Shown: one piece after another, positions 1,958 through 41,293 of the stretch | Layout of the letters: each line of letters starts with the position of its first letter | How positions within the stretch are numbered: the first letter of the stretch is position 1 | Assembly (NCBI GenBank): GCA_018818885.1 | Contig: JAHIRB010000018.1 | Span: forward strand, 5,041 to 69,040 | DNA from: Patescibacteria group bacterium | Lineage (GTDB): Bacteria > Patescibacteriota > Patescibacteriia > Buchananbacterales > SURF-54 | DNA length: 64,000 nt | Direction of reading: 5' to 3' | Made by a program: the position numbers and the translations under genes | Notes under the pieces: generated by a model | Database searches by the model: none | Told to the model about the DNA's origin: nothing | What the model saw: only the letters and a program-made list of their open reading frames with translations

Positions 1958-3295
1958 ATGCAGAAGAGAATTGAACAATTTATCGCAAATCCTAAGAAAG
2001 CTTTATGGAAGCTTTCTTTGCCAATTATTATCGGAATGTTAGTCCAAGTTTTATACAACATTGTGGATACCGCCTTTGTTGGTAGGCTTGGCGCAGAAGC
2101 CATTGCGGCATTAACATTTTCTTGGCCATTATTTTTTGTATTGATTTCATTGAATGGAGGGCTGGGAGCAGGCATGAACTCTCGCCTATCACGTTACTTG
2201 GGCGAAAAAAACATACCCCAAGCGGAAAATACAGCAACCCATGGCATGGTATTGTCTTTAGTCGTAGGTTTTATTATTTTTGTTTTAGGCATGATTTTTT
2301 TAAAACCTTTATTAGTAGTTTTCGGCGCTTCTGATTATGTTTTGAAATATGCTTTGGATTATATGAGAATTATTTTAGTGGCAGGGTTATTTATGTATCC
2401 CTCGTATATTATGTATTATATATTCGCCGCACAGGGAGATACCAAAACTCCGATGAAAGTTCAAATAATTGCTTTGGTTGTTAACATGATTTTAGACCCG
2501 ATATTTATTTATTTTTTAGGCCTTGGAGTTAAAGGTGCTGCTTATGCAACCATGATTTCTTTTTTACTTTCTTTAATAATCTATATATATCTGTTTAAGA
2601 AAAGATCACATATAAAAATTAATATCAAAACTTTTAAGTTTTCGTGGCGTATTACTAAAGAAATCCTTGCTGTAGGGCTACCTGCCACCATCATGATGCT
2701 TTTGATGTCTGTTTATTTTATTTTTATAAATCGTTTGATGGCATCTTTTGATGTTGAAACAGTGGCAGCGTTTGGTATAGTAGCTCGGCTTGATAGTGTT
2801 GCAGTTATGCCGGTGGTTGGCCTTTCGGCTGCACTCATTACTTTAGTTGCAATGTTTTATGGAGCAAAAAGATACGACCTTCTAAGAAGTATCGTTTGGT
2901 ATGCAATTAGGGTGATGATAATTTTTAGTATTATTATAGGCTTTATATTTTTTGTTTTCCCACAATTATTTTTGATGATATTTACCAAAGATAAAAATTT
3001 GATTAATCTTGGTTCCCAATATTTAAGAATACAGTTGTTTACTTATCCTTTTATGGTAATCGCCATGATAATTGGTAGAACTATGCAAGGGCTTGGTTTG
3101 GGTTTGCCTGGTTTGATAATTAATTCATTAAGAATGATTTTGATTGCTGTTCCTTTAGCTTATGTTTTTGTTTTAATATTTAACTTTTCTTATTTGTCTA
3201 TTGCGGTTGCTTCGGTAATCGCGGCAGTCATAGCAGCAATTGTTGCGATAATTTGGATAGAAATTAAATTAAAGAAATTAAAATTACTTATTTGA
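1958..3295 (+). CDS. MATE family multidrug/oligosaccharidyl-lipid efflux transporter
   Basis: 445 aa, 12 predicted TM segments. The N-terminal ALWKLSLPIIIGMLVQVLYNIVDTAFVGRLG is typical of MATE/NorM/DinF. Confidence 0.8.
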   Translation: MQKRIEQFIANPKKALWKLSLPIIIGMLVQVLYNIVDTAFVGRLGAEAIAALTFSWPLFFVLISLNGGLGAGMNSRLSRYLGEKNIPQAENTATHGMVLSLVVGFIIFVLGMIFLKPLLVVFGASDYVLKYALDYMRIILVAGLFMYPSYIMYYIFAAQGDTKTPMKVQIIALVVNMILDPIFIYFLGLGVKGAAYATMISFLLSLIIYIYLFKKRSHIKINIKTFKFSWRITKEILAVGLPATIMMLLMSVYFIFINRLMASFDVETVAAFGIVARLDSVAVMPVVGLSAALITLVAMFYGAKRYDLLRSIVWYAIRVMIIFSIIIGFIFFVFPQLFLMIFTKDKNLINLGSQYLRIQLFTYPFMVIAMIIGRTMQGLGLGLPGLIINSLRMILIAVPLAYVFVLIFNFSYLSIAVASVIAAVIAAIVAIIWIEIKLKKLKLLI

Positions 3296-4155: not shown

Positions 4156-4788
4156 ATGCCAGAAATAATTCCCGCAATTTTGACTGATGGTTTAGAAGAT
4201 TTTAAGGATAAACTAAAAAAATTAGAAGGGCTTACCAAGTGGGTGCAAATTGACATCATGGATGGCAAGTTTGTCAATAATAAATCAATCAAGCTCGAAG
4301 ATATTGTTAGTATTGATCATAATTTTAAATTAGAAGTACATCTGATGGTAGAAAATCCAGAAAAGTATTTTAAGGTCTGTCAAAAATTAAAATGCAAAAG
4401 AGTTCTTTTTCATTTTGAAGCTGTAAAAGATCCGTTGAAAACAATTGAGGAGATGAACCAATATGATTTTGCCAAAGGTATATCAATTAACCCCCCAACA
4501 CCAGTAGATGATGTGTTGCCTTACGTAGATTTGGTTGATGTAGTTTTGTTTTTAGCAGTTAACCCAGGTTGGCAGGGGCAAAAGTTTGATCCTAATGTTT
4601 TAAAAAAGATAGAAAAGATTAGAGAAACTCATCCCAATAAACAAATATCTATTGATGGTGGAGTGAATATGGATAATATCAAAAGAGTAGTTAGTGCAGG
4701 ATTTAATATAATAAATATTGGTAGCGCAATTTTTCAAAATGATCAAGTTGAGAAAAATATTATATCATTTAAAAGTATTATTAAATAA
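4156..4788 (+). CDS. rpe: ribulose-phosphate 3-epimerase
   Basis: IPAIL and DIMDGKFV motifs. 210 aa, adjacent to rpiB and tkt. Confidence 0.85.
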   Translation: MPEIIPAILTDGLEDFKDKLKKLEGLTKWVQIDIMDGKFVNNKSIKLEDIVSIDHNFKLEVHLMVENPEKYFKVCQKLKCKRVLFHFEAVKDPLKTIEEMNQYDFAKGISINPPTPVDDVLPYVDLVDVVLFLAVNPGWQGQKFDPNVLKKIEKIRETHPNKQISIDGGVNMDNIKRVVSAGFNIINIGSAIFQNDQVEKNIISFKSIIK

Positions 4789-4863
4789 AAAGACTGGGCA
4801 ATTCATAATTAACTTACCCAGTCAGTTGTGCGAAGCCTAGTAGCTAATAGGTATCCATACAAG

Positions 4864-5124
4864 TTAAAGGTGCGATATTAACAACATTAACCAAGCTGTG
4901 AATACGAAGCGGAATGCCCACATACGATATGATTCTGACTGGGCAATTTCAGCTTTAGCATCTTTGCTGAATTTAATGCCAATTAAGTTGTGATCAGAAA
5001 ATCCTAATGATTCGAGGATTTGAAAGTCACGTGCATTATCCGAATATATTTTGGCTGCAAGCATAGCAAGCAATCCAAGAAATGCAAACATGATTGAGAC
5101 TATCAAATTCCATGTCATTGACAT
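4864..5124 (-). CDS. small 2-TM membrane protein of the SD-bearing small-ORF class
   Basis: 86 aa. AGGGAGGTGA SD 9 nt upstream of the ATG. Hairpin ACTGGGCAA/TTACCCAGT plus T-run terminator downstream on the minus strand (4790-4830). Confidence 0.45.
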   Translation of the reverse strand: MSMTWNLIVSIMFAFLGLLAMLAAKIYSDNARDFQILESLGFSDHNLIGIKFSKDAKAEIAQSESYRMWAFRFVFTAWLMLLISHL

Positions 5125-5251: not shown

Positions 5252-7264
5252 ATGGATCAAAAACAACTAGATCAACTTTCCATTAACACAATTCGTTTTT
5301 TAGCAGTAGATGCAGTGCAAAAAGCCAATTCAGGACACCCAGGTTTGCCTATGGGAGCAGCACCAATGGCTTATACTCTTTGGACTAAGTTTTTAAGTCA
5401 TAACCCAAATAATCCCGAGTGGCTAAATCGGGATAGGTTTATTTTGTCTGCTGGGCATGGATCAATGCTGTTATATTCTTTACTCCATTTGACTGGGTAT
5501 GACATACCTTTAAGTCAGATTAAACGATTTCGTCAATGGGATTCTAAAACACCTGGTCATCCTGAATACGAAATTAAATCAGGCATTGAAACTACAACCG
5601 GTCCATTAGGCCAAGGTTTTGGTAATGGAATTGGTATGGCAATAGCGCAAAGGTATTTATCAAACCGATATAACAAGCGTGGATTTAAATTATTTGATTA
5701 TTATATTTACAGTATTGTTTCAGACGGTGATTTAATGGAAGGAGTGTCGTCAGAAACAGCTTCTATGGCTGGTAACTTAAAATTAGGCAAGTTGATATAT
5801 TTATATGATGATAACGACATATCAATTGAAGGATCAACGAACATAACTTTCACAGAAGATGTTGCTACTAGATTTAAGGCATTTGAATGGCACGTTCAAA
5901 AAGTCAATGATGGAAACAATATCAAAGCAATTGAGGGTGCAATAGAAAAAGCAAAAAAGGACAACCGGCCATCCATCATTATTATCAAAACAACAATAGG
6001 TTATGGTAGTCCAAATAAAGCTAATACTGCTTCTGCCCATGGTGAAGCTTTGGGAGAAGAAGAGGTAGAATTAACCAAAGAAAATTTAAACTGGCCAAAG
6101 GAACCAGCATTTTACATTCCAAAAGAAGCTTTAGAACATTTCAGAACAGCAGTAGAAAAAGGTCATAAACAAGAAAAAGAATGGAACGAAATGTTGAAAG
6201 AGTATAAAAAGAAGTATCCTACCTTGGCAAAAGCATTAGTTACTTTAAAACCACAAAGGTTACCAGTTGGTTGGGCAAAAAAACTATCAGAATATTCTGC
6301 AAAAAAAGATCCAGTTGCTACTCGTGTAGTTTCAGGGGAAGTTTTGAATATTTTAGCTAAGTTTTTGCCAAATTTAATTGGAGGTTCTGCAGATCTAGAA
6401 CCATCAAACAAAACTTATCTAAAAGGTAAAGGAGATTTCAGCGCTAAGACAGCTAACAGAGAAACTCACAACTTGCATTTTGGAGTGAGAGAGCACGGCA
6501 TGGCTGCAATTTTAAATGGAATCGCATTGTCAAAACTAGTAATCCCCTATGGCGGAACATTTTTGATATTTTCAGATTACATGCGGCCATCAATTAGGCT
6601 GGCAGCTTTGATGGGGCTACGCGTAGTTTATGTATTTACTCACGATTCTATTGGTTTGGGAGAAGACGGGCCAACACATCAACCAATTGAGCAGTTAATG
6701 GCTTTGCGGGCTATCCCTAATATGACTGTTATACGTCCAGCAGATGCTAACGAAACCGTACAAGCGTGGAAAGTAGCAATAGAAAATACAACAGGCCCAA
6801 CAGCTATATGTCTAACACGTCAAAGTTTACCAATCATTGACCAAAAAACCTACTCGTCAGCCAAGAATTTATCAAAAGGTGCATACATACTTAATCCCAA
6901 AGTAAAAAATCCAGATATTATTCTAATAGCAACAGGATCTGAAGTGCAATTAGCTATGGAAGCATCAGAAAAATTATCCCCCAAAGTCAACGCTAGAGTA
7001 GTAAGCATGCCAAGCTGGGAGTTGTTCGAAAAACAACCACAAAGTTATAAAGATAAAGTTTTACCTCCAGAAGTAAAGTCAAGACTAGCAATTGAAGCAG
7101 GAGTTACGCAGGGTTGGTATAAATATGTTGGCGATAAAGGTGATATTATCGGAATAGATAAATTTGGTGCTTCAGCGCCAGGTAAAGTTGTTATGAAAAA
7201 ATACGGGTTTGGTTTAGCAAATGTTGTAAAAAAAGCCAGAGAGATTATTAAAAAGAATAAATAA
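5252..7264 (+). CDS. tkt: transketolase
   Basis: GHPGLPMGAAPMAYTLW thiamine-diphosphate motif and full-length homology. Start chosen at the internal Met (MDQKQL) by alignment to known Tkt N-termini; the ORF track starts at 5234. Confidence 0.9.
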   Translation: MDQKQLDQLSINTIRFLAVDAVQKANSGHPGLPMGAAPMAYTLWTKFLSHNPNNPEWLNRDRFILSAGHGSMLLYSLLHLTGYDIPLSQIKRFRQWDSKTPGHPEYEIKSGIETTTGPLGQGFGNGIGMAIAQRYLSNRYNKRGFKLFDYYIYSIVSDGDLMEGVSSETASMAGNLKLGKLIYLYDDNDISIEGSTNITFTEDVATRFKAFEWHVQKVNDGNNIKAIEGAIEKAKKDNRPSIIIIKTTIGYGSPNKANTASAHGEALGEEEVELTKENLNWPKEPAFYIPKEALEHFRTAVEKGHKQEKEWNEMLKEYKKKYPTLAKALVTLKPQRLPVGWAKKLSEYSAKKDPVATRVVSGEVLNILAKFLPNLIGGSADLEPSNKTYLKGKGDFSAKTANRETHNLHFGVREHGMAAILNGIALSKLVIPYGGTFLIFSDYMRPSIRLAALMGLRVVYVFTHDSIGLGEDGPTHQPIEQLMALRAIPNMTVIRPADANETVQAWKVAIENTTGPTAICLTRQSLPIIDQKTYSSAKNLSKGAYILNPKVKNPDIILIATGSEVQLAMEASEKLSPKVNARVVSMPSWELFEKQPQSYKDKVLPPEVKSRLAIEAGVTQGWYKYVGDKGDIIGIDKFGASAPGKVVMKKYGFGLANVVKKAREIIKKNK

Positions 7265-37011: not shown

Positions 37012-37227
37012 TTATTTTTTTTCTGATTTTTTAGATTTAGATTTCTTTTCATCCTTAAATTTAATAACATCCCGGCCATTGTATACTCCGCAATTAGGGC
37101 AGGCATGGTGTGGTCGGATTGGTTTATCACATTTAGGACATTTAACTAATTTAACTTTTTTTAGGGCAAGATGCGATCTTCGGCGTTTTCCCGCAGACGC
37201 TGGTCTTTTCTTGGCTGGTACAGACAT
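37012..37227 (-). CDS. rpmF: 50S ribosomal protein L32 with a Lys-rich C-terminal extension
   Basis: AVPKKRTS-like start (SVPAKKRPAS), KCPKCDKPIRPHHACPNCGVY zinc ribbon. Confidence 0.85.
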   Translation of the reverse strand: MSVPAKKRPASAGKRRRSHLALKKVKLVKCPKCDKPIRPHHACPNCGVYNGRDVIKFKDEKKSKSKKSEKK

Positions 37228-37293
37228 AGGTTAAAATTTCTAATTACTAATTAATAATTTCTAATAGGTAAAGTATAGGATATTTTTTTGAGT

Positions 37294-37322
37294 TTGACAA
37301 GTATGACATTTTTTAATAAGGT
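37294..37322 (+). promoter_or_regulatory. promoter-like TTGACA-17-TAAGGT upstream of the three-gene small-ORF operon
   Basis: Identical hexamers and spacing recur at 52699-52727. Confidence 0.4.
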
Positions 37323-37349
37323 ATTAGCACAAATGAAAGGGGGTCGCAC

Positions 37350-37568
37350 ATGCCTACATATATAGCATTTGAGATAATACAAGAAGGAGGTATGGCAGCA
37401 GAAATAATCGATAAAGCAGATAGTATAATGGAAGCGGTTCAAAGAACCAAAGTAGTTCGGCTTTATGCAGTCAAACTGTTGGGTGATTGTCCTGGACATG
37501 ATTTTATGCCAGCACAAAGTGATTGTGGAATCACAGAATTTTGTCAGATTTGCGCAGAGATCAGATAA
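37350..37568 (+). CDS. small Cys/His protein with one copy of a CPxH...CxICxE domain
   Basis: 72 aa. AAAGGGGGT SD 5 nt upstream. VKLLGDCPGHDF...EFCQICAEI. Confidence 0.5.
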   Translation: MPTYIAFEIIQEGGMAAEIIDKADSIMEAVQRTKVVRLYAVKLLGDCPGHDFMPAQSDCGITEFCQICAEIR

Positions 37569-37587
37569 TTAGAACAGGGGGGTATTG

Positions 37588-37953
37588 ATGAATGGCAAAA
37601 ATCTTGAACTTCAAAACCAGAATGAGAACATAAAACATGCGGGTTGGTGGGGCATAGCCTCATGTCTTATTTTCTCAGCAGCATTGTTGTATTATATTTT
37701 TGCTCTTATATTTAATATACTCTCGGTTTTTGAAGCAAGAGAGGAAGGGCAATATTATACAGCTTATGCTATTTTGTTTGCCATCTTCTTTTTACTCGGT
37801 TGGGTAATCAGTATGATTGGCACAGTTGTTGGATTCTATGGATTGTGTCAGAGTCACAGGAAAAAAATGTTTGCCGTTATTAGTACAATTCTCAACTCGT
37901 TGATTTTTTGGGGAACTATCGTACTATTTTATTGGGCGTCGAAGTTCAACTAA
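37588..37953 (+). CDS. small 4-TM membrane protein, middle gene of the operon
   Basis: GGGGGG SD. About 121 aa with four hydrophobic helices. Confidence 0.45.
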   Translation: MNGKNLELQNQNENIKHAGWWGIASCLIFSAALLYYIFALIFNILSVFEAREEGQYYTAYAILFAIFFLLGWVISMIGTVVGFYGLCQSHRKKMFAVISTILNSLIFWGTIVLFYWASKFN

Positions 37954-37970
37954 ACAAGGAGGAGATTTAG

Positions 37971-38387
37971 ATGCCAGAATTTAGTGTTCATGTAGTGTTG
38001 AGCGCAAGTACATTTAAGAATGCATTAAAAATGGCCATTCGTGACGGTTGTCCTGGCGCTCCCGAAGTCGTGATAATTGGAGGATGCCCAGATCACAAAA
38101 TCGAACCTCCAGAACCATCTGCACCATATTCCTTAGAGTTGTCTTTTTGCCGGATATGCGGCGAAAGAAGCATGAGTGATAATCCAATGCACGTATATCA
38201 AGCAGAACGAGAAGACAACGTGCGTAGTATCGGCGCACACTCTTTCAGAGATGCTGTGGAAACAGCGAAAGTCGCATTGGGAGGATCTGTTGAGGTAAAA
38301 CTCGTAGGAAAATGCCCCAAGCATAAGTTCGTACACTTGGATGCTCCGATTAACGAGGTTTGCGAAATTTGCGGGCACATGCAGTAG
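37971..38387 (+). CDS. small Cys/His protein with two tandem CPxH...CxICxE domains
   Basis: 138 aa. AAGGAGGAG SD 6 nt upstream. IIGGCPDHKI...FCRICGE and LVGKCPKHKF...VCEICGH repeat the domain of ORF 37350. Confidence 0.5.
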   Translation: MPEFSVHVVLSASTFKNALKMAIRDGCPGAPEVVIIGGCPDHKIEPPEPSAPYSLELSFCRICGERSMSDNPMHVYQAEREDNVRSIGAHSFRDAVETAKVALGGSVEVKLVGKCPKHKFVHLDAPINEVCEICGHMQ

Positions 38388-38419
38388 GTCACAAGCGACC
38401 AACTAAAAACCCCAGGTCA

Positions 38420-38459
38420 ATCAACGTTTTGGCCTGGGGTGTTGTTTTTGACCTCCCCC
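38420..38459 (+). terminator. intrinsic terminator CCCCAGG...CCTGGGG plus TGTTGTTTTT
   Basis: 7-bp GC stem and a T-rich tail ending the three-gene operon. Confidence 0.5.
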
Positions 38460-38608
38460 TGTCCTCCCCCTCGAAGAGGGGGAGGGACTCGTTTAAGTAT
38501 GTAATGTGTAAAAATAATGTCTGACTACTACAAACTTACAAACATCCTTAACCGAGTTCCCCCTCCTTTATAAGGAGGGGGACAGGGGGAGGTCAAAATA
38601 CAAAAAGC
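38456..38608. mobile_element. MITE-like element with perfect 17-bp terminal inverted repeats (TTTTGACCTCCCCCTGT / ACAGGGGGAGGTCAAAA)
   Basis: Each terminal repeat abuts an internal C8/G8 hairpin (CCTCCCCC-TCGAAGA-GGGGGAGG and CCCCCTCC-TTTATAA-GGAGGGGG). About 70 bp of AT-rich core. No ORF. Confidence 0.35.
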
Positions 38609-38618
38609 AAGGCTTCTA

Positions 38619-38640
38619 AGCCTCGGCTTTTGTATGTCAT
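38619..38640. terminator. hairpin AAGGCTTCTAAGCCTCGGCTTTT, terminator for gyrA on the minus strand
   Basis: On the minus strand the stem is followed by TTTTTGTATTTT. Confidence 0.45.
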
Positions 38641-38677: not shown

Positions 38678-41293
38678 TTATATAAAGGTGACTGTTGCTA
38701 CAGAATCACCACCTTCTTTAAATCTCATCAACCTGACACCTTGAGTTGCTCTACCTATCACGTTAACTGTTTTAAGTGGCAATCTAATAACTTGCCCTTT
38801 TTTAGAAATAATAATTGCGTCTTCATCTACTGCTTTAGAATTTACTACACTAAAGTATACAATCTTTCCTGTCTTTGGGGTAATTTTCGCAGTTTTGATT
38901 CCAGAACCACCTCTACCTTGGGTTTTAAACGAACCTAGTACACTTCGTTTACCAAAACCATTTTCCATCACCACTAAAACTTGTCCAACTTTTGTCAAAA
39001 CTGAATCAATAATATCCATGCCTACAACATCGTCACCTGCTTTTAGTCGAATTCCTCTAACGCCACCAGCTCCTCTACCCATAGATCTAACACTTGATTC
39101 TTTGAATTTAATTGCTTGGCCGTCTGCTGTTACAAGCATGATGTCGTCTTTTCCTGTTGAAGGTTTTACCCATTCGAGTTCATCTTTTTTACGTAAGCGT
39201 ATAGCAATTAAACCTGAACGTCTTACATTATCAAGATCAGAAATAACAACTTTTTTAGTGAATCCATTCTTGGTAACCATGACTAAGAATTTATAATCTG
39301 CTAATTCAGTCAATGGTAATATCGAAGTTACCTTTTCGTCGGAACTAAGTTGCAAGAAATTTACAATTGCTTGTCCCTTTGAGGTTCTAGAAGTTTGTGG
39401 AATGTCGTAAGCTTTAAGTTGGAATACACGTCCGGTGGTAGTAAAAAATAGTACATCTGAATGTGTCATAGTAGTAAAGAAGTGTTCTACGAAGTCTTCT
39501 TCCTTAGTAGTTAATCCAATAACACCTTTACCACCACGCGTTTGTGTTTTAAAAGTATCAGGAGGTAGACGCTTAATATAACCAGCTTGCGTCATGGTAA
39601 TGATTGTTTCTTCGTTTGGAATTAAATCTTCTTGTTTAAATTCTTTGACACTGCCAGCAACAATTTCTGTTCTACGTTTATCGCCAAACTTTTCTTTTAT
39701 TTCGGTTAATTCTTTTTTGATTACACCCAAAATTTTTGCAGGAGATTTAAGTAGTGCTTCTAATTCTTTTATCAAATCTTTCTTTTCTTTTAGTTCTTGT
39801 TCCACCTTTAGTCTTTCAAGTCCAGCTAGTTGTTGCAACTTCATTTCCAAAATTGCCACGGATTGTCGTTCGGATAATTTAAATTTCTTAATCAAATTAA
39901 TTTTGGCAACTTCCCTATCTTTTGATTTTTTGATTGTACTTATGATGGCATCAATTTTTATTAGCGCCATCCTCAATCCTTCTAGAATATGTGCTCTATC
40001 TTTTGCTTTGGCTAGGTCGTATTCTGCTCTACGTCTGACCACTTCCTGTCTATGTTTAATATATTCTTCTAATACCATTTTCAACGTCAAAACTCGAGGC
40101 TGAATACCATCAACAAGCGCTAACATGTTGACGTGAAAAGTTGTCTGAAGATCAGTTAGTTTAAAAAGTCGATTTAAAATCTTTTTAGGATAAGTATCTT
40201 TTTTTAGTTCAATGACTACTCGTACTCCATCTTTTGAAGATTCATCACGTAAATCTTTTATACCTTCGATTTTTTTGTCTTTGATTAATTCTGCCAATCT
40301 TTCTAAAACAGTTGCCTTGTTAACTTGATACGGAACTTCTGATACAAGTATTCTATGTGCTCCTTTGTGTTCTACAATTTCAGTTTTTGCACGCATTACA
40401 ATGCCACCTTTTCCTGTGGCGTATGCTTGTTTTATTTCTTTTGCATCGTAAATAATAGCACCAGTTGGAAAATCTGGGCCTTTAACATACTGCATTAAAT
40501 CGTCTACGTTAGCATCTTTGTTATCAATTAAATGTATGATTGCATCAACTAGTTCTGATAGGTTATGCGGTGGGATATTGGTTGCCATTCCAACTGCAAT
40601 GCCTAAAGTACCGTTTAAGAGCAAGTTGGGCAGTTTTGCTGGCATGACTAGTGGTTCTTTTATGGTACCGTCGTAATTTGGACTAAAGTTAACGGTATCT
40701 TTATCAATATCATTTAAAAGTTCATCTGCAATACTTTCAAGTTTTGCTTCTGTGTAACGCATAGCAGCAGCGCGGTCGCCATCCATAGAACCAAAATTAC
40801 CTTGGCCATTAACCAAGGGATAACGTAAGGAAAATTCTTGTGCCATCCTAACCATGGAATCGTAAACTGCAGTATCACCATGAGGATGGTATTTACCTAA
40901 AACTTCACCAACTACTGTAGCAGATTTTCTAAACTTCGCAGAAGATCTAAGACCAATAGTCCACATAGCATATAAAATACGTCTGTGAACTGGTTTTAAA
41001 CCGTCACGCACATCTGGTAAAGCGCGAGCAACAATAACAGACATAGCATAGTCGAGATAGCTTTCTTTTACCTCGTCCACAATGGGTCGTTTTTGCACTT
41101 TACCGACACCTGCTTGTTCTACAACTCCGTTTACAGTCAAAGCTTGTTCTAGTGGAGCTTCTTTTGGTTTTTCAGCCTTCTTGTTTTTAGGTTTAGCACT
41201 AGCTTGCTTTTTGGAAGCAGGCTTTTTGGTGGGCTGTTTTCCGCCAGAGGCGGATCGGCCTTTGGAGGATTTAGTTGTTTTATTCTTCGGCAT
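38678..41293 (-). CDS. gyrA: DNA gyrase subunit A with a roughly 60-aa Lys-rich N-terminal extension
   Basis: [33 protein letters not shown] GyrA N-terminal motif, preceded by [39 protein letters not shown]... 871 aa. Confidence 0.9.

Follow-up and report, generated by a model that had tools for sequence, protein, structure and literature searches.

Between the genes gyrA and rpmF of an uncultured member of the Patescibacteria, in a 64,000-nucleotide stretch of contig JAHIRB010000018.1 that will be called the window, lies a block of three small open reading frames (ORF1, ORF2, and ORF3). The middle one encodes a small membrane protein, and the two outer ones encode acidic proteins that share a short repeated Cys/His module of the form CPxH...CxIC. 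The block is a real accessory operon restricted to one lineage, and it runs on the strand opposite to gyrA and rpmF. As for its role, our best guess, made with low confidence and given a probability of about 0.35, is that a membrane protein and its putative zinc-knuckle partners are carried together as a toxin/antidote-like accessory cassette.

The module consists of a hydrophobic strand, a first knuckle G-x-C-P-x-H, 9-17 residues, and a second knuckle C-x-I-C. ORF1 contains one copy of it and ORF3 two, as a preliminary description of this DNA had proposed. The three copies have 25-39% identity. BLASTP aligns ORF1 with the C-terminal half of ORF3 at E 3e-8 (38% over 52 amino acids, aa) and with the N-terminal half at E 5e-5, while the two halves of ORF3 align with each other at E 5e-7; moreover, the whole-module scores of all three pairs are 8-14 standard deviations (sd) over the mean of 5000 shuffles. 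When the three modules are aligned, G-x-C-P-x-H...C-x-I-C is invariant, along with two Ala residues in the preceding helix. The region upstream of G-x-CPxH, taken alone, has marginal similarity (p 0.05, 0.03, and 0.89 in a shuffle test), and for this reason the secure repeat is a core of about 30 residues, namely strand, knuckle, loop, and knuckle; of the module build first put forward, it is this core that stands. In the six-frame translation of the window, the pattern CPxH-(5-30)-CxxC occurs three times, solely in the three modules, and it has no occurrence in 818 kb of related loci, the background scanned amounting to more than 1.6 million six-frame residues.

Each copy holds four Cys/His residues arranged as two knuckles, as in zinc ribbons and knuckles, and the order C, H, C, C is invariant in all three, in agreement with the 3Cys+1His pattern of a treble-clef or zinc-ribbon site suggested earlier. 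Judged from these residues, each module probably binds zinc. That the same four candidate ligands persist in three diverged copies is good internal evidence for real genes that were under selection, and we are highly confident that these are real genes with true paralogous modules. A threefold internal repeat of this kind offers some evidence of real genes where no outside homologue exists, which is unusual for an orphan.

The arrangement of the genes is that of the tight operon described before: all three ORFs are co-directional, ORF1 and ORF2 are separated by 19 nt, ORF2 and ORF3 by 17 nt, and together they occupy 1,002 of the 1,038 nt of the block on a single strand. Each gene has its own Shine-Dalgarno (SD)-like site at normal spacing to the start codon, as had also been noted, and in a six-frame comparison of codon-usage scores the annotated frame came out top for each of the three. 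A terminator follows ORF3, as first described, with a 12-bp stem (7 GC pairs), an 8-nt loop, and then GTTGTTTTTG. With the block so densely filled, SD spacing correct, and the coding score best in the annotated frame, it is highly improbable that the ORFs are not genes but chance open frames in an intergenic insertion. The shortness of the proteins and the lack of homologues anywhere would suit such chance frames, but the diverged repeat keeping C, P, H, C, I, and C invariant three times, over a motif background of zero, speaks against them as well. Regarding the start of ORF3, the NCBI record uses GTG at 37995, which gives 130 aa, and the ENA and Logan gene calls give the 138-aa form. A perfect AAGGAGG precedes the ATG at 37971 by 8 nt, and the N-terminus of the 138-aa form (MPEF followed by a hydrophobic strand) parallels that of ORF1 (MPTY followed by a strand). 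The coordinates of these and the neighboring features are collected in Table 1.

Table 1. Features of the three-gene block and its surroundings, in window coordinates (aa, amino acids; pI, isoelectric point).
Feature	Position	Strand	Remarks
ORF1	37350-37568	+	72 aa, pI 4.5; one CPxH...CxIC module; identical to hypothetical protein KKA15_02580 (NCBI)
ORF2	37588-37953	+	121 aa; small membrane protein; identical to KKA15_02585
ORF3	37971-38387	+	138 aa, pI 5.95; two tandem modules; hypothetical protein KKA15_02590
ORF1 module core	37488-37553	+	proposed ligands C47, H50, C65, C68
ORF3 module core 1	38085-38159	+	proposed ligands C39, H42, C60, C63
ORF3 module core 2	38313-38372	+	proposed ligands C115, H118, C131, C134
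SD-like site of ORF1	37337-37344	+	AAGGGGGT
SD-like site of ORF2	37576-37583	+	AGGGGGGT
SD-like site of ORF3	37956-37962	+	AAGGAGG
Promoter-like site of the operon	37294..37322	+	TTGACA, 17 nt, TAAGGT; read from sequence
Operon intrinsic terminator	38409..38450	+	stem-loop 38409-38440, then T-run
rpmF	37012-37227	-	flanks the three-gene block
rpmF promoter-like site	37300..37272	-	TTGTCA-17-TATACT; 10/12 matches (promoter scan)
gyrA	38678-41293	-	flanks the three-gene block on the other side
Terminator-like hairpin after gyrA	38608..38625	-	convergent with the operon; context only
Palindromic element	38446-38598	.	two inverted units of ~57 nt; arms 81% complementary

The position of the block was compared with 80 NusB-anchored loci from other Patescibacteria, the best of which has 79% NusB identity. 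The genes rpmF, nusB, and rnc share one strand in almost every locus. The gene gyrA was found upstream of rpmF, on the same strand, in 26 loci, and in 8 of these (L005, L010, L017, L021, L030, L042, L049, and L053) it ends 13-211 nt before rpmF. The remaining gyrA-rpmF gaps measure about 0.5-4 kb and are filled with unrelated cargo, such as genes for triosephosphate isomerase (tpiA), a response regulator, orotidine monophosphate (OMP) decarboxylase (pyrF), and an APH-family kinase, a Phd/ParE-like pair, and orphan ORFs. In the window, where the two flanking genes are in place as first described, the spacing is ~1.45 kb and is taken up by the opposite-strand block and a palindromic element. Given the short co-directional junction in relatives, the block is very likely a lineage-specific insertion at a variable junction, and neither tblastn nor an unfiltered HMMER scan of 17,084 stop-to-stop ORFs found a relative of ORF1, ORF2, or ORF3 in the 80 loci. 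The GC content at third codon positions (GC3) is 0.38 for ORF2 and 0.40 for ORF3, compared with an average of 0.246 (sd 0.034, maximum 0.30) for 46 long window genes, and the overall GC of ORF3, 0.46, is an outlier. On these compositional and positional grounds the insertion probably came by horizontal transfer, into a junction where cargo has been gained repeatedly. Its patchy, accessory distribution at a variable locus is a trait of toxin-antitoxin and defence genes. In practical terms, the locus is of value as a documented case of cargo gain at the gyrA-rpmF junction.

Other small genes were seen at the same junction. The locus L076 has, in its gyrA-rpmF gap at 4407-4880, adjacent genes of Phd/YefM-like (E 1.7e-4) and ParE-like (E 9e-4) type, both under the Pfam cut-offs. 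In the closest relative found, L004 (79% identity in NusB and 83% in GyrA), the gap is ~550 nt and contains at 5303-5527, on the opposite (-) strand, a different orphan ORF of 74 aa with one hydrophobic segment and no Pfam match. Moreover, six loci of a related clade (L031, L032, L037, L038, L047, and L054) have a different family of small ORFs (60-90 aa), divergent from rpmF and located about 150-400 nt upstream of it on the opposite strand, with their own terminator-like hairpin. Their motif is G-C-x-H-P..P-T-G-K-x-W ... C-x-x-C-x-T-S, the first Cys not being conserved in L037 and L038, and the family has no Pfam match. These ORFs were considered as positional homologues of the CPxH module and found to be unrelated, with an hhalign probability of 0.3%.

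Searches for relatives covered sequence families, clusters, and contig collections. Pfam and NCBIfam, at E values up to 10, and PHROGs and PADLOC, at E values up to 1, yielded no usable match to the three proteins: the best profile hits of ORF3, to BRI3 (E 0.085) and RecR_ZnF (E 1.8), are far short of the cut-offs, and ORF1 had none. Sequence searches of the PDB with ORF3, the module profile, and ORF2 found no match either, so that the claim of a new domain holds to the extent that no described family was matched in these five resources. A word-indexed search of 5.8 billion clusters gave only self-matches for all three proteins, and an exhaustive phmmer (HMMER) search with ORF3 against 1.84 billion representatives recovered ORF3 itself and three tandem-repeat proteins. 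These last, with Calx-beta-like, leucine-rich (LRR), and homeobox repeats, were rejected as spurious sums of additive weak hits, without any Cys motif. The true paralogue ORF1, which scores 34 bits against ORF3, was not recovered by phmmer, and single-module relatives at ~35% identity would therefore be missed. When genome, metagenome, and viral contig collections were scanned with the module profile, no relative was confirmed by tblastn, ORF2 had none among the viral contigs, and tblastn found none for ORF3 in phage and plasmid records or for ORF1 and ORF2 in phage records, the collections including 50,697 phage records, 72,556 plasmids, and IMG/VR. Contigs of three samples contain the block itself, and over lengths of up to 20 kb every one of them is 100% identical to the window. 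Co-conservation of the three ORFs elsewhere, a point raised in the preliminary description, was thus not seen, as nothing was found beyond these identical copies of the same contig, and conservation cannot serve as evidence of function. The cassette is seen in one uncultured Patescibacteria (Parcubacteria-type) lineage, and in a single population of it.

With respect to known systems, the module is best described, from its sequence features, as a new variant within a known structural kind, and it is in no curated family. Like zinc ribbons and knuckles, among them the C4 ribbon of L32 encoded next door (CPKC...CPNCG), it has two short knuckles, the first being a C-P-x-(C/H) after a beta-strand, which lie 9-17 residues apart and provide four candidate ligands in a domain of ~30 residues. 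Unlike them, it has His as its second ligand (CPxH) and an invariant Ile in its second knuckle, C-x-I-C; no curated profile matches it, and its predicted fold has no match among solved structures. A likeness of motif only is found with the C(P)XCG zinc-finger micro-proteins of haloarchaea, such as Brz (PMC2253796), which have fewer than 100 aa, Cys knuckles, and a C-P-x-C/H signature. Many of these are confined to single lineages, and their function is either regulatory or unknown. The present module differs in being bacterial, from the candidate phyla radiation (CPR), and in occurring twice in one protein and once in another, with their two genes on either side of a membrane-protein gene; ORF1 and ORF3 are acidic and have no detectable sequence relationship to those proteins.

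Patescibacteria have many unknown genes that are specific to single lineages (PMC9132574), and an orphan cassette in this group is therefore unsurprising. The CPxH...CxIC module could be the first member of an undescribed zinc-binding family that, with its partner of three transmembrane segments (3-TM), makes up a new CPR conflict system composed of a membrane effector and a zinc-knuckle regulator or antidote; this we hold to be improbable, and under it relatives would exist that are too diverged or too short for the searches made here. If a new zinc-binding family with a membrane partner is true, it would add one more small-protein system to the lineage-specific unknowns of Patescibacteria and might provide a simple model of how small zinc-knuckle proteins control membrane proteins.

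Structure prediction was applied to both Cys/His proteins. ORF3 folded alone had a predicted local distance difference test score (pLDDT) of 35 and is unusable, while the AlphaFold2 model of ORF1, made with the three-row module alignment, reached a pLDDT of 65 and a predicted template-modelling score (pTM) of 0.44, that is, moderate confidence. In this model the order is beta (6-11), beta (18-23), alpha (26-33), and beta (39-44), with the knuckles bordered by two short strands (52-54 and 63-65). The predicted fold has no significant match among solved structures, and its nearest neighbors are uncharacterised small phage proteins (E at least 0.09, not significant). The order beta-beta-alpha-beta is also what recalls the N-domains of HicB-like or dsRBD-like antitoxins, and the helix motif A-x-S-[FI]-x-x-A-[VL] presumably resembles a helix of the HicB family; this lead was rejected, being supported neither by the Pfam scan nor by the structure comparison nor by the shuffle test of the upstream region.

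The middle protein, ORF2, had been described as a four-helix membrane protein, but its Kyte-Doolittle hydropathy gives three hydrophobic stretches, at residues ~20-50, 56-88, and 94-118. The loops between them contain the acidic EAREEGQ and the basic QSHRKKM, and under the positive-inside rule their charges suggest a topology with the N-terminus in and the C-terminus out. No family match was found for ORF2 in Pfam, NCBIfam, PHROGs, PADLOC, or the PDB sequence search.

These parts may be assembled into a mechanism, as follows. In ORF1 and ORF3 a zinc-ribbon-like knuckle pair would follow a small beta/alpha unit, and each module would bind one structural Zn(II) via Cys, His, Cys, and Cys. Both proteins are acidic and lack a signal-peptide-like start; as putative cytoplasmic proteins of acidic character they would more likely bind proteins than DNA. 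They could then dock on the basic cytoplasmic face of ORF2, formed by its N-tail and the RKK loop, and control it. From these charges, such a physical partnership with ORF2 seems possible, at somewhat less than even odds. The cassette would be self-contained, of the membrane-toxin/antidote or immunity kind, and horizontally acquired at a junction that collects cargo.

Known toxin-antitoxin systems provide comparators for both kinds of component, namely the zinc-binding antitoxin MqsA and the small membrane toxins of the Hok/TisB type and CptA/YgfX. The present operon is like them in being a compact set of small-protein genes, patchy in occurrence and placed at a variable locus, that joins one small hydrophobic membrane protein to small soluble partners. 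It is unlike them in having no homology to any, three genes rather than two, and a zinc protein without a helix-turn-helix (HTH); moreover, ORF2, whose toxicity is hypothetical, is larger than these membrane toxins and has three hydrophobic segments. A toxin/antidote-like role, taken by itself, is doubtful.

Several observations weigh against the proposed cassette. No component has toxin-antitoxin or defence homology in PADLOC (E up to 1) or in any Pfam toxin-antitoxin family, and no toxin-antitoxin system of this composition is known. A 121-aa protein with three transmembrane segments exceeds the classic small membrane toxins in size. The GC3 of ORF1, 0.24, is host-like, unlike that of ORF2 and ORF3, and no direct repeats or mobility genes were found flanking the block. 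In addition, since all recovered copies are 100% identical, there is no variation for a dN/dS or other selection test.

The same anatomy would serve for an accessory operon with no part in conflict, in which the zinc-knuckle proteins are assembly, regulatory, or metal-handling factors for the membrane protein, and ORF2 would be, e.g., a channel, a transporter subunit, or an envelope factor that benefits an episymbiont lineage. The host-like codon composition of ORF1 fits this, and the presence of tpiA and pyrF at the same junction elsewhere indicates that cargo there need not be selfish. Against it, Pfam and NCBIfam gave no match to any family of transporters, channels, or metal-homeostasis proteins, the genes were found neither in the 80 related loci nor in any database searched, and sites of the C, H, C, C type with this spacing are usually structural rather than used in metal trafficking. 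We consider this explanation unlikely.

Another reading takes the block as a remnant of a phage or mobile element, i.e., moron-like cargo that no longer functions in the cell. Frames, SD sites, and terminator are all intact, no integrase, transposase, or phage gene adjoins the block, and neither the phage and plasmid records nor IMG/VR hold a match; furthermore, zinc ligands kept across three diverged copies argue for past selection. What would agree with a remnant is the outlier GC3 of ORF2 and ORF3, the orphan distribution, the variable junction, the small phage proteins as best, if not significant, structural neighbors, and the adjacent palindromic element, whose unit recurs in unrelated metagenomic contigs. 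On the whole, we find a remnant rather improbable.

Regarding the expression of the operon, the promoter TTGACA-17-TAAGGT is weaker than first claimed. Its -35 hexamer at 37294 is exact, but the -10 hexamer has only 3 of the 6 bases of TATAAT, and for that reason the site was not listed by the promoter scan. The -35 overlaps the -35 of a divergent and stronger rpmF promoter-like site. This overlap could be taken to favor a reading of ORF1 and ORF3 as zinc-ribbon regulators that bind nucleic acids, with the membrane protein as regulated cargo, in the manner of the small CPxCG-type zinc-finger proteins that can regulate transcription, e.g., Brz of Halobacterium (PMC2253796). The acidic pI of both proteins runs counter to it, and it is hardly probable.

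In seven of the related loci (L024, L029, L031, L032, L037, L047, and L054) a promoter-like signal TTGCCN-17-TAGGAT is located ahead of the rpmF start, and GTAGGAT is invariant among them; the rpmF site of the window differs from these. Judging by the signals in these relatives, -10 hexamers that contain a G appear acceptable in this group.

The palindromic element next to the block is probably not part of the operon. It had been called MITE-like, after the miniature inverted-repeat transposable elements, and its inverted-repeat hairpin is real, with 57-nt arms of 81% complementarity that correspond to the terminal inverted repeats of MITEs; it is present in a single copy in the window and in none of the 80 related loci. 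No direct repeat of at least 12 nt was found at the element or the block, and an Rfam scan of the region gave only sub-threshold hits, with whalefall-1 at 17 bits against a cut-off of 37. The unit of the element reads GACCTCCCCCTGTCC(Y)CC(Y)CCT and is followed by a short hairpin (CCCCCTCCTT, loop, AAGGAGGGGG); in the first arm of the window copy the stem is shifted yet complementary (CCTCCCCCTC / GAGGGGGAGG). An exact 22-mer of the unit was found in 15 metagenomic contigs (among loci L084-L098), most of which continue with the same hairpin, and their GC, from 0.36 to 0.71, shows that the unit occurs in unrelated organisms.

Two of these contigs have particular arrangements of the unit. In L095 (contig GC 0.36) it occurs three times within 331-905, with two inverted units around an 80-nt spacer, as in the window, and with a DUF559 endonuclease-like gene (PF04480, E 2.9e-31) that is flanked by one unit at either end; no relative of this gene was found in the other 14 unit-bearing contigs. 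Going by this single observation, the unit may form the terminus of a small mobile element, of which the window copy would be an empty or non-autonomous form. In L094, at 3051-3230, the hairpin of the unit is split into CCCCCTCCTTGG and AAGGAGGGGGG, ~140 nt apart, by an insert that itself contains an inverted repeat, which looks as though another element had entered the loop of the hairpin.

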